A DNA stretch of 64,000 nt from Methanobacteriota archaeon (GCA_005878525.1 VBMB01000135.1:39-64038); one strand, 5' to 3'; numbered from the stretch's first letter, positions 6,916 to 9,292 are shown. Notes: a model not told the origin generated them from the sequence alone. Made by a program: numbers and translations.

Positions 6916-7992
6916 TCATCGCGTCGCACCCTTTTCCCGTTTTTCATTCCTCTTATTCCTTTTCATCTCCCGGCCAATTCGATCTGCGATCTTCAGCGGT
7001 TCGGGATATCTGCGGAGGGTTGACGCGCGAACCACTTCGAGCGCGCGATCCAGAGAGATGCGGTGGCCGACGGAGACAAAGTTCGGCCGCTCGCAGCCCG
7101 GCGGAGTCCACGCGTATCCGCGGACCTGACCTCGGAATTCGATCGCCGTCACACCTGAGGGCGAATGGCCTCTCTTCGTCACACGACCAACCAGCGGGTG
7201 CTTCGCCACGCCGATCGTCGGAAGGTCGAGTCGTACTCCCACGTAGCACGCGATTCCGAAGAGAGCGGGATGCAGACGGCCGTGACCGTCAACGAGGAGG
7301 ACGTCCGGTCGCTGATTGAGGCGACGAACGGCTGCCTCGATTCCCGGAAACTCGCGATAAGCCAGGTATGTCGGGATATACGGAAAATCGACGTGATGCC
7401 TTACCGCGGCAATGTCGATTGGATTGAGATCCTTTAGGTCGACGCATGCGGCCACGACATACATCGCATCTCCGTCATAGCCTGCGTCGACGCCGGCGAT
7501 GCGTTCGAATTGTCGGCCCGTGTCCAGTTCGACGACGCGGTCGCTGAGCTTCCGTTGCTCGTCTCGGAGCGTGGTGAGAAGGCCGACGGGTTGCAACACG
7601 TCAAGGATGCGTCCCGATGAGACACGCCCACGCACTAGCTGGAAACCCTCTCGCTCGAGTTCCGATGATGCGGATACGAGAACCGGACGGCCATCCGCGC
7701 GGACGACGCGGTGGCTCCCCGCCGTGTCCGGATGAGTGTTCAACCATGTGGCCACCGATCGGGCCGCCCGAATGTCGCCCAACGCCCGCGCGATGGCTCC
7801 GCACGTCGCCACGCGGCCGGGTCCGACTTGATCGAGGCATTCTTGAAGAGCCTTCGAGAAATCGACGTCCACGCGCGCACAGGGACTTGCGTCCGCAATA
7901 CTCTTGCCATTTCCAGGATTCGCAACGGCAACCATTCCCGTCTCTCCGATTGCGCGGGAAGCCGCGAAAACCCTTTCTACGGCTCGTCCCAT
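6916..7992 (-). CDS. nfi: Endonuclease V fused to an N-terminal MGMT-like (Ada/Ogt C-terminal) domain; the position equivalent to the catalytic Cys of PCHRV is Ser (GSHRVV)
   Basis: EndoV motifs GVDAGYDGD, HPALFGIACYVG and PTIGVAKH. The N-terminus carries the MGMT HTH region (ATCGAIARALG) followed by SHRVV. Start set at MGRAVERV (ATG 7992..7990); the first about 95 codons of the listed ORF are low-complexity and overlap mtaD. Confidence 0.8.
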   Translation of the reverse strand: MGRAVERVFAASRAIGETGMVAVANPGNGKSIADASPCARVDVDFSKALQECLDQVGPGRVATCGAIARALGDIRAARSVATWLNTHPDTAGSHRVVRADGRPVLVSASSELEREGFQLVRGRVSSGRILDVLQPVGLLTTLRDEQRKLSDRVVELDTGRQFERIAGVDAGYDGDAMYVVAACVDLKDLNPIDIAAVRHHVDFPYIPTYLAYREFPGIEAAVRRLNQRPDVLLVDGHGRLHPALFGIACYVGVRLDLPTIGVAKHPLVGRVTKRGHSPSGVTAIEFRGQVRGYAWTPPGCERPNFVSVGHRISLDRALEVVRASTLRRYPEPLKIADRIGREMKRNKRNEKREKGATR

Positions 7993-8005: not shown

Positions 8006-9292
8006 ATGTCCCTCCTGCTTCGCGGTGGCCTCATTATCACCCAGGACGAAAAGCGTCGGCTCGTGTCCGGTGACCTTCTCGTGGAAGACGGGCGAATTGT
8101 CGCGGTGGGCGAGGCGGATCGCACCGCGGACGAGGTCATCGATTGCTCCGGGTGCGCCGTCCTTCCCGGTTTCATCAACCTCCACCACCACGTCGCGAAC
8201 ACGCTCCTCCGCGGCATTGCGGACGACATGCCGCTCGAAGAGATGCTTCCAAAAGCCTCCGCGATCGACGCGAAGCTCACGCGGCGCGACGTGCAAATCG
8301 GTGCGCTCCTCGGATGCGTCGAGATGATCCGTTCGGGGACGACGAGCTTTCACGACCTGTTTTACTGGGAAGACGAGATCGCGCGGGCCGTGCGCGAATC
8401 GGGGATGCGTGGGTTTCTGTCGTGGGTCACGCTCGATGAGGCCTTCACGACGCAGCACGGCAGCCCGGTGAAGAACGCCGACGCATTCGTCGCGAAGCAG
8501 AAGGGCGATCCTCTCGTCACGCCCTCCGTCGGCGTGCAGGGCGTCTACTCGGCCTCGGAGGAAACCTACACGAAGGCGAAAGAAATCGGCGAGCGACGCG
8601 ATGTCCGACTCCACACGCACCTCTCCGAGACGCGCGGGGAGGTGGAAGCCCATCGCGAGAAGACCGGCCTTCGACCGGTCGAGTGGCTCGAGAAGATCGG
8701 GTTCCTCGGGGAGCGGGTCACCGCGGCGCATTGCGTTTGGGTCACGATGAACGAAGTCCGCGCCCTCGCCCGTTGCGGCACGAGCGTCGCTCATTGCCCG
8801 GTTTCCAACATGAAGCTCGCGGGTGGCGGCGTCGCGCCGGTGCCCGAAATGATCGAAGAAGGCGTCGTCGTCGGCCTCGGGACCGACTCGCCGATCTCGA
8901 ACAACGGGATGGACGTCTTTGCGGACATGAAGGTCGCCGCGCTCCTGCACAAAGCGACCCGGTGGGACGCGCGGGTGATGTCGGCGCAGACCGTCCTCGA
9001 CCTCGCGACGATCCAGGCAGCCCGCGCGTTACACGTCGAACAGGAAATCGGTTCGATCGAGCTCGGGAAGCGTGCGGATCTCGCGGTCGTCTCTCTGAAA
9101 GGCGCCCACACAACTCCTTTTTATCCGGAAACCGTCATCCGGCACCTCGTCTACAGCGGCCGGGGGAGCGATGTGCAAGCGACGATCGTCGATGGCCAGA
9201 TTCTAATGTCGGGGGGCGTCGTGCGAACCGTCGACGAGGCGGACGTCATCGCTCGAGCGCAAGAGACGGCCCGCGAGCTGTTCGAGGCGTGA
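8006..9292 (+). CDS. mtaD: Amidohydrolase, 5-methylthioadenosine/S-adenosylhomocysteine deaminase family
   Basis: Metal-binding HHH motif (INLHHHVANT), HTHLSE and GTDS motifs; 428 aa from the MSLLLRGG ATG at 8006. Confidence 0.8.
   Translation: MSLLLRGGLIITQDEKRRLVSGDLLVEDGRIVAVGEADRTADEVIDCSGCAVLPGFINLHHHVANTLLRGIADDMPLEEMLPKASAIDAKLTRRDVQIGALLGCVEMIRSGTTSFHDLFYWEDEIARAVRESGMRGFLSWVTLDEAFTTQHGSPVKNADAFVAKQKGDPLVTPSVGVQGVYSASEETYTKAKEIGERRDVRLHTHLSETRGEVEAHREKTGLRPVEWLEKIGFLGERVTAAHCVWVTMNEVRALARCGTSVAHCPVSNMKLAGGGVAPVPEMIEEGVVVGLGTDSPISNNGMDVFADMKVAALLHKATRWDARVMSAQTVLDLATIQAARALHVEQEIGSIELGKRADLAVVSLKGAHTTPFYPETVIRHLVYSGRGSDVQATIVDGQILMSGGVVRTVDEADVIARAQETARELFEA

Follow-up and report, generated by a model that had tools for sequence, protein, structure and literature searches.

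What does an alkyltransferase fold do once the cysteine that accepts the alkyl group is gone and the domain is carried on a nuclease? The question is raised by a minus-strand gene in a 64,000 nt stretch of DNA from a Methanobacteriota archaeon (GCA_005878525.1, VBMB01000135.1:39-64038; hereafter the window, with positions counted from its first nucleotide). The gene product joins a domain related to the C-terminal domain of O6-alkylguanine-DNA alkyltransferase (AGT, MGMT) to endonuclease V (EndoV). An initial annotation, made from the DNA sequence, read the first domain as an alkyltransferase-like (ATL) damage-recognition module, possibly one that hands O6-alkylguanine lesions over to EndoV. 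Sequence comparison and structure modelling favour a different reading, to which a probability of about 65% is given. In this reading, an active EndoV is combined with a retained, cysteine-less, AGT-derived accessory that binds DNA and probes nucleotides. The accessory would descend from an ancestral AGT-EndoV fusion and have become fixed in a clade of soil Thermoplasmata.

Domain architecture of the fusion protein

The minus-strand open reading frame (ORF) reported initially is real and terminates at 6916 (TGA stop, 6916-6918). Its best-supported start is a GTG codon giving a protein of 318 residues, while the frame from an upstream ATG at 7992 translates to 358 aa; residue numbers below refer to the 318 aa protein unless the 358 aa frame is named. 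Both expected domains, the MGMT C-terminal domain and EndoV, were found in this one ORF. The C-terminal two thirds match PF04493 (Endonuclease_5) at aa 148-338 of the 358 aa frame (E-value 1.1e-51; 175.7 bits, cut-off 23.4), over profile positions 2-198 of 198, and PF01035 (DNA_binding_1) matches aa 44-106 of the same frame (40 bits, cut-off 27), covering only profile positions 1-65 of 81. NCBIfam agrees with these domain calls at weaker scores; its EndoV equivalogs fall under their cut-off (163 vs 230), which is no surprise for a protein that is both fused and divergent. The AlphaFold2 (AF2) model of the 318 aa protein has a mean predicted local distance difference test score (pLDDT) of 92.9 and a predicted template modelling score (pTM) of 0.88.

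The EndoV domain shares 33% identity with Escherichia coli EndoV/Nfi (4xpu; phmmer E-value 7e-34), with the catalytic and wedge residues of that enzyme all aligned. D129, E174, D195, K224 and the segment P164-Y165-I166-P167 are invariant among 80 family members, and the last catalytic histidine, H270, is His in 66 of them, Asn in 12 and Asp in 2. Foldseek matches the AF2 model to 4xpu with an E-value of 2e-26, a template modelling score TMt of 0.89 and a root-mean-square deviation of 2.0, which is the RNase H-like EndoV fold. Two differences separate the window protein from EndoV of E. coli and Thermotoga maritima (2w35): the added N-terminal domain, and an alanine in place of the arginine of the DGxGxxHPR motif. 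The HPRxxG part of that motif reads HPALFG in the family (residues 201-206, in the region of 7282..7284), the Arg position being Ala in 65, Thr in 6, Ser in 3 and Val in 3 of the 80 members. Taken together, the conserved residues and the fold predict a catalytically complete EndoV with nuclease activity.

The N-terminal 97 residues (the N-domain) begin at the first helix of the AGT C-terminal domain. The AGT N-terminal subdomain is absent from the protein, as had been pointed out, and a search of the window found no second AGT-like domain. The helix-turn-helix (HTH) string ATCGAIARALG, also listed in the initial annotation, is present. Modelled alone, the N-domain has a pLDDT of 93.2, and a Foldseek comparison with the Protein Data Bank ranks two ATL proteins at the top, vpAtl of Vibrio parahaemolyticus (2kif, TMq 0.72) and Atl1 of Schizosaccharomyces pombe (3gva, 0.68), followed by the C-domains of human, Sulfolobus and E. 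coli AGT at about 0.6. A profile of the family matches Ada-C, vpAtl and Atl1 at E-values of about 1e-5.

Loss of the acceptor cysteine and shortening of the pocket loop

Conservation was assessed among the best 120 of 398 homologous proteins, which are 50-99% identical, nearly all two-domain and derived from uncultured Thermoplasmata, and are named in their sources as "endonuclease V" or "deoxyribonuclease V"; 107 of these contain the N-domain. In the window protein the alkyl-acceptor position of AGTs is occupied by a serine (Table 1). The AGC codon was confirmed on the DNA, where it is followed by CAC CGC GTC GTC. Alignments to solved structures (phmmer, hmmsearch) place this serine in the column of the active-site Cys of Pk-MGMT and Ada-C (both PCHRVV) and of the Trp of Atl1 (PWHRV). 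A multiple alignment (MAFFT) likewise sets GSHRVV of the window protein against PCHRVV of human AGT (hAGT) and PWHRVI of Atl1, with the acceptor column fixed by anchoring on the H/R column, since loop lengths differ. Both the serine and its assignment to the active site had been claimed before, and both stand. Across the 107 homologues the acceptor residue is Ala in 53, Gly in 38, Ser in 13, Met in 1 and Cys in 1, a drift among Ala, Gly and Ser which suggests that serine as such is no specific adaptation.

A second change affects the base-flipping tyrosine, which is replaced by cysteine throughout the family; the same column holds Tyr in Ada-C, vpAtl, Atl1 and the PCHRV-type relatives. Thirdly, residues are missing from the loop that follows the hairpin, 5 relative to vpAtl and 7 relative to Atl1; in Atl1 this loop carries Arg69 and walls the alkyl pocket. 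Because the acceptor Cys is lost, the Tyr has become Cys and the pocket loop is shortened, alkyl transfer by the N-domain of this clade would be excluded. The earlier conclusion that this is not a suicide enzyme, drawn from the missing Cys and the missing AGT N-terminal subdomain, is well supported.

Other parts of the AGT fold are strongly conserved. The family keeps the arginine finger (Table 1), the HTH (ARALGD-RAAR-AVA), H-R-V-V, a near-invariant RADGRP hairpin and a Glu/Asp equivalent to hAGT Glu172; the Asn hinge is Asn in the window protein and is not conserved among the 107. More than 20 N-domain positions are invariant or nearly so among proteins that are about 50% identical. Ratios of nonsynonymous to synonymous substitution (dN/dS) are 0.21-0.29 for the N-domain at synonymous distances (dS) of 0.7-1.4, and 0.15-0.25 for the EndoV domain. 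The N-domain is under purifying selection and is not decaying.

Two further observations concern the same domain. Cysteines are specific to the clade at two positions, 7837..7839 (100 of 107) and the former tyrosine codon at 7801..7803, where canonical AGT-EndoV relatives have Leu/Val and Tyr, respectively. In a comparison of the window gene (6919..7872) with a 90% identical locus (L004), dS is 0.05 in the N-domain vs 0.34 in the EndoV part, six-fold lower, which could be sampling noise or mark a recombination breakpoint inside the gene.

Table 1. Features of the fusion gene and its divergent neighbourhood in the window.
Feature	Position	Strand	Basis or remark
Best-supported fusion coding sequence	6916..7872	-	GTG 7872 start, 318 aa
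Degenerate AGT C-terminal domain (ATL-like), residues 1-97 of 318 aa	7582..7872	-	Pfam, AF2, Foldseek
PF01035 match within the N-domain	7675..7863	-	E-value 3.4e-10
TGC codon, Cys in place of base-flipping Tyr (hAGT Tyr114, Atl1 Tyr25)	7801..7803	-	Cys in 107/107
CGA codon, arginine finger (hAGT Arg128, Atl1 Arg39)	7759..7761	-	Arg in 105/107; aligned to Arg of Ada-C, vpAtl, Atl1
AGC codon, Ser53 (Ser93 in the 358 aa frame), alkyl-acceptor position (hAGT Cys145, Atl1 Trp56)	7714..7716	-	Codon read and alignments
Endonuclease V domain	6979..7551	-	PF04493
EndoV catalytic/wedge codons	Asp 7486-7488, PYIP 7372-7383, Glu 7351-7353, Asp 7288-7290, Lys 7201-7203, His 7063-7065	-	Aligned to 4xpu
TATA-like motif GTAGAAAGGGTTTT (minus-strand reading)	7967..7980	.	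Conserved in the window and at least 18 related loci; non-coding
Second block AAGAGTATT, candidate proximal TATA-like element	7897..7905	-	24 nt upstream of GTG 7872
Divergent amidohydrolase, TRZ/ATZ / MtaD / 5'-deoxyadenosine deaminase group	8006..9292	+	PF01979

Distribution and evolutionary history

A scan of GTDB with one genome per species returned 259 loci with relatives, the closest (90% identity) in the soil metagenome-assembled genome (MAG) "Thermoplasmata archaeon SMAG_U13408". Ala, Gly or Ser in place of the Cys is seen in some 107 homologues and, counted by GTDB species, in about 35 Thermoplasmata from soil and sediment. All GTDB loci of at least ~45% identity carry [A/G/S]HRVV together with T-C-G where AGTs have T-Y-G, and more distant loci carry PCHRVV and T-Y-G (Methanomassiliicoccales, DHVE2/Aciduliprofundum, Natronoplasma and one Aenigmatarchaeota MAG). 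The domain junction (…LR.EQ…) is common to the window protein and PCHRV-type relatives (L045, L058, L082 and others). In a neighbour-joining tree of the EndoV domain, the Cys-less, Tyr-less forms fall in one clade, and sporadic, independent losses of the Cys are seen inside the PCHRV clade (PWHRVV, PTHRVV, PRHRVV, PFHRVI, PVHRVV). The tree suggests that an ancestral AGT-EndoV fusion probably lost its acceptor Cys once in the soil clade.

On a wider scale, 1.84 billion cluster representatives were searched with a profile, which yielded 6,595 matches. The best 150 of these (representatives at 50% clustering) include about 100 two-domain fusions, 45 with the Cys and 55 without it (W, A, L, I, V, T and others). 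The fusion is thus an ancient and widely distributed architecture that has lost the Cys repeatedly. Decay has gone further in several relatives (L033, L035, L039, L040, P0250, P0145, P0158), which lack either the H-R motif or all of the HRV segment together with the C-terminal helix, and keep an ALGD-RA-RAV HTH in front of an intact EndoV. Deletion of the HRV segment with retention of the HTH suggests that the durable function of the N-domain is DNA binding rather than chemistry in a lesion pocket.

Two homologue searches (with P0180 and an Aciduliprofundum protein as queries) and the GTDB scan returned no Ferroplasma or Thermoplasma sequence among their matches; only uncultured Thermoplasmatota were returned, the one exception being a protein with the label Candidatus Aciduliprofundum boonei.

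Several unusual variants were seen among the fusions. A large group in Thermoplasmatota (P0182, P0246, P0256, P0192, L041, L043, L059, L076) has PC[Y/F][R/K]V and not PCHRV, replacing the His of the Cys-His-Glu triad; 58 C-Y and 27 C-F forms occur among 317 two-domain proteins, raising the question of whether these are active alkyltransferases. Other fusions (P0166, P0169, P0179, P0185, P0219 and others) have the string H-x-H-x(3-5)-C-x-C-H-R-V-V, in which the H-x-H-x(3-5)-C part just before the acceptor Cys could, from its sequence, be an extra metal-binding site; their genomes appear to be large and are probably bacterial, that of P0166 being represented by a 12.7-Mb contig. At two loci, L010 (1501-2443) and L036 (1501-2299), the fusion gene is apparently frameshifted or truncated, with stops after the HTH in L036.

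Comparison with known AGT and ATL proteins

A known protein of this architecture is the AGTendoV of Ferroplasma acidarmanus, a bifunctional enzyme that transfers alkyl groups (Kanugula et al. 2005, PNAS 102:3617), as described in a 2023 review (PMC10779285); the initial annotation was right to cite an active fusion in Ferroplasma. Of the two genera that it cited, Ferroplasma and Thermoplasma, the first alone is documented in the literature searched. It comes from the same archaeal phylum and, like the window protein, has an AGT C-terminal domain without the N-terminal subdomain placed N-terminal to EndoV. The missing subdomain is thus not decisive alone, because the active Ferroplasma fusion lacks it too. 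As judged from its description, the Ferroplasma protein differs in having the acceptor Cys and the Tyr, where the window protein has Ser, Cys and a shorter pocket loop.

Archaeal ATL-EndoV fusions are also on record, first reported by Tubbs et al. 2009 (Nature 459:808) according to the same review. By that description these are again Cys-less AGT-like domains on EndoV in archaea, and the review relays the speculation that their EndoV acts like XPG, a nuclease of nucleotide excision repair (NER), adding that future experiments might test a related hypothesis on movement of the fusion along DNA. The Tyr to Cys change and loop deletion of the soil clade are not mentioned there, and no characterisation of an ATL-EndoV protein was found in the literature searched.

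Compared with the stand-alone ATLs (Atl1, vpAtl, E. coli YbaZ/eATL), the N-domain has the same single AGT-C-like fold (TM 0.68-0.72) and shares the absence of the acceptor Cys, the HTH with its arginine finger, the HRV motif and the lack of a conserved Asn hinge in the family. ATLs differ in usually having Trp at the acceptor position and in keeping the Tyr; their pocket loop is longer, and they grip DNA with an extension loop at the C-terminus. The window clade has Ser/Ala/Gly, Cys, a loop 5-7 residues shorter and EndoV in place of the extension. By descent, the N-domain would belong to the AGT-EndoV lineage and not to the Atl1/YbaZ family. On these sequence features it is best described as an ATL in the broad sense, i.e. 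a Cys-less AGT homologue, which is neither an Atl1/YbaZ orthologue nor demonstrably specific for O6-alkylguanine.

Role of the N-terminal domain

The favoured explanation can be put as follows. The gene product would serve DNA repair in an uncultured lineage of soil Thermoplasmata and consist of two domains, a complete EndoV preceded by the descendant of an active AGT domain. The ancestral form, with PCHRV and Tyr, would persist in Methanomassiliicoccales, DHVE2/Aciduliprofundum and other Thermoplasmatota, and the soil clade would have replaced both residues and shortened the pocket loop. Selection would be maintaining the HTH, the arginine finger and the HRVVRADGRP hairpin, features from which the N-domain is predicted to bind DNA. 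It would most probably act as an accessory in the minor groove, probing nucleotides and holding or positioning EndoV on the DNA.

Several points weigh against this explanation. The strong conservation of HRVVRADGRP and the two clade-specific cysteines suggest a function more specific than generic DNA binding. The high pTM of the full-length model is a hint that the two domains sit in a fixed arrangement, which could be of use in handing lesions over. Structurally, the nearest proteins are true ATLs, and these bind O6-alkylguanine tightly. Finally, the neighbour-joining tree covers a single domain, was midpoint-rooted and made without bootstrap, and contains a long-branch artefact (L010).

Among the other explanations, lesion hand-over fares best. 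Here the N-domain would work as a true ATL: it would flip O6-alkylguanine, bind it tightly and present or distort the site for a nearby nick by the tethered EndoV. Such a protein would carry out incision repair of alkylation damage as a single polypeptide, analogous to ATLs recruiting NER nucleases. The top-ranked structures (vpAtl, Atl1), the retained arginine finger, HTH, HRV motif and Glu172 equivalent, the purifying selection on the N-domain and the defined inter-domain arrangement suggested by the model are all in keeping with this, as is the speculation in the review (PMC10779285), which states that every AGT and ATL keeps the base-flipping features, the Tyr among them. It is precisely this Tyr that is Cys in every one of the 107 homologues. 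In addition, the loop corresponding to that with Arg69 of Atl1 is 5-7 residues shorter, no Trp or other bulky residue fills the acceptor site, the linker to EndoV stands where ATLs have their C-terminal extension loop, and sister lineages delete the whole pocket while keeping the HTH. EndoV flips its own substrate base, as is established from EndoV structures, and both domains could presumably not hold the same nucleotide. Hand-over is made less likely by the lost Tyr and shortened loop, and is considered unlikely overall. The initial proposal of a damage-recognition module is thus upheld in part: the domain is a Cys-less AGT homologue with an arginine finger, but the Tyr replacement and the shortened pocket loop count against recognition of damage in the manner of ATLs. 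A more specific version would make the N-domain a dedicated sensor that steers EndoV to incise beside O6-alkylguanine or another alkyl lesion, with the invariant Cys at the Tyr114 position forming part of a remodelled recognition site. This is slightly more doubtful again; if true, it would provide archaea that lack canonical NER coupling with a one-protein alternative-excision pathway for alkylation damage.

The N-domain might instead be a functionless leftover of the ancestral AGT, with only EndoV of importance to the cell. Repeated independent Cys losses and progressive deletions in related lineages would fit such a vestige, but a dN/dS of 0.2-0.3, similar to that of the EndoV domain, the many near-invariant positions at ~50% identity, a confidently predicted fold and retention across the ~35 GTDB species make it improbable.

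Still less probable is that the protein remains an alkyltransferase, accepting the alkyl group on Ser53 instead, or on the Cys that the clade has at the Tyr114 position. An invariant new Cys does arise in the same clade that lost the canonical one. In established AGT structures, however, the residue at position Tyr114 touches the flipped base along its opposite edge, and several PCHRV-type fusions also have a Cys there. Serine cannot be required, since the acceptor position is mostly Ala or Gly, and C145S of hAGT serves as an inactive trap, forming a stable complex without transfer (PMC10779285). The same source notes that restoring the Cys in the E. coli ATL did not restore activity.

That TGC was misread as AGC in sequencing or assembly, or that the gene is a pseudogene, can practically be dismissed, as a check through homologues found GSHRVV in independent assemblies at 99%, 97%, 90% and 76% identity and mostly Ala or Gly in the rest of the family (A/G/S clade-wide), with ORFs that are intact and under purifying selection.

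Start codon and divergent intergenic region

The initial annotation placed the start at 7992, only 13 bp from the divergent mtaD gene. Homologue N-termini point to a different codon: 98 of 107 begin with M or V at the column of residue 41 of the 358 aa frame, followed by D-x-D-F, and this column is GTG 7872 in the window. ATG 7992 was rejected as the conserved start, as its frame meets stops and single-base indels in near relatives and it lies inside a block conserved at the DNA level; at loci L004 (90% identical) and L005 (89%) the frame is shut by a stop, with single-base indels after it. ATG 7935 shows the same pattern of stops and single-base indels in near relatives and was also rejected, but is possible as a start for the window genome alone. 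With the 7992 start wrong, the 13 bp spacing is wrong too; between GTG 7872 and the ATG of the amidohydrolase at 8006 the distance is 133 bp.

The intergenic DNA contains two conserved elements (Table 1). ATG 7992 sits in the conserved flank of the GTAGAAAGGGTTTT motif, the wider block CGTCGATGGGnCGnGCCGTAGAAAGGGTTTTCGCGG being conserved as DNA, and the ATG of the amidohydrolase follows 25 nt downstream of the motif. The conserved block of 12 loci that are more distant lies 21-24 nt upstream of the GTG start of the fusion gene and contains an in-frame TAG. The window subclade (the window, L004-L010 and L026) has an insertion of ~70 nt between the motif and the fusion gene (7873..7966), which holds AAGAGTATT. 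This second block is kept in the window, L004, L005, L010, L007 and L026, and is conserved as DNA and not as protein, because the window and L007 read it in different frames. From the geometry of archaeal promoters, we infer that transcripts are leaderless and start from TATA-like elements, with AAGAGTATT a candidate for the fusion gene and the motif at 7967..7980 a putative promoter of the divergent amidohydrolase. A sigma-70 promoter and terminator scan found nothing and has no bearing on an archaeon.

In distant relatives (L011-L024, at about position 1470-1480) a GTAGAAAGG(G)TTTT motif lies in an intergenic region of ~60 bp, 21-24 nt from the fusion GTG. At L001/L002, the only locus with both starts known, it is also ~23 nt from the divergent amidohydrolase start. 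By its placement, the motif looks like one shared TATA-like element for two leaderless genes running in opposite directions.

The best NCBIfam matches of the amidohydrolase are all under curated cut-offs. The divergent amidohydrolase/fusion pair is also present at 59% and 68% protein identity, and gene order is kept down to 59%, with FtsZ, two KaiC-like ATPases, SCP2, RNase HII and the amidohydrolase on one side and the fusion gene, PanE, TBP, polyketide_cyc2 and TatD on the divergent side. A deaminase-family (adenosine-type) amidohydrolase is thereby paired with an inosine-specific nuclease, and RNase HII lies directly downstream of the amidohydrolase (in the window and at L001/L002, 3654..5945). 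That the pair links deaminated purine pools with inosine removal from DNA is pure speculation.

Implications

The window protein adds to a known kind of fusion, and its serine-bearing, Cys-less domain belongs to a feature common to a whole clade of soil Thermoplasmata. The idea of hand-over to EndoV is likewise not new, being a speculation already in print; if true, it would show a suicide repair protein converted into a targeting module for a nuclease, an archaeal parallel to the coupling of ATLs to NER. For annotation, the label "methylated-DNA--[protein]-cysteine S-methyltransferase", given by some sources to such architectures, needs a check of the acceptor residue. AGT-EndoV fusions are here documented as widespread in Thermoplasmatota, with repeated loss of the acceptor Cys; in one large soil clade, a form without the Cys and the Tyr and with a shortened loop has become fixed under purifying selection. 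These proteins offer a natural series for asking what the AGT fold does without alkyl transfer.

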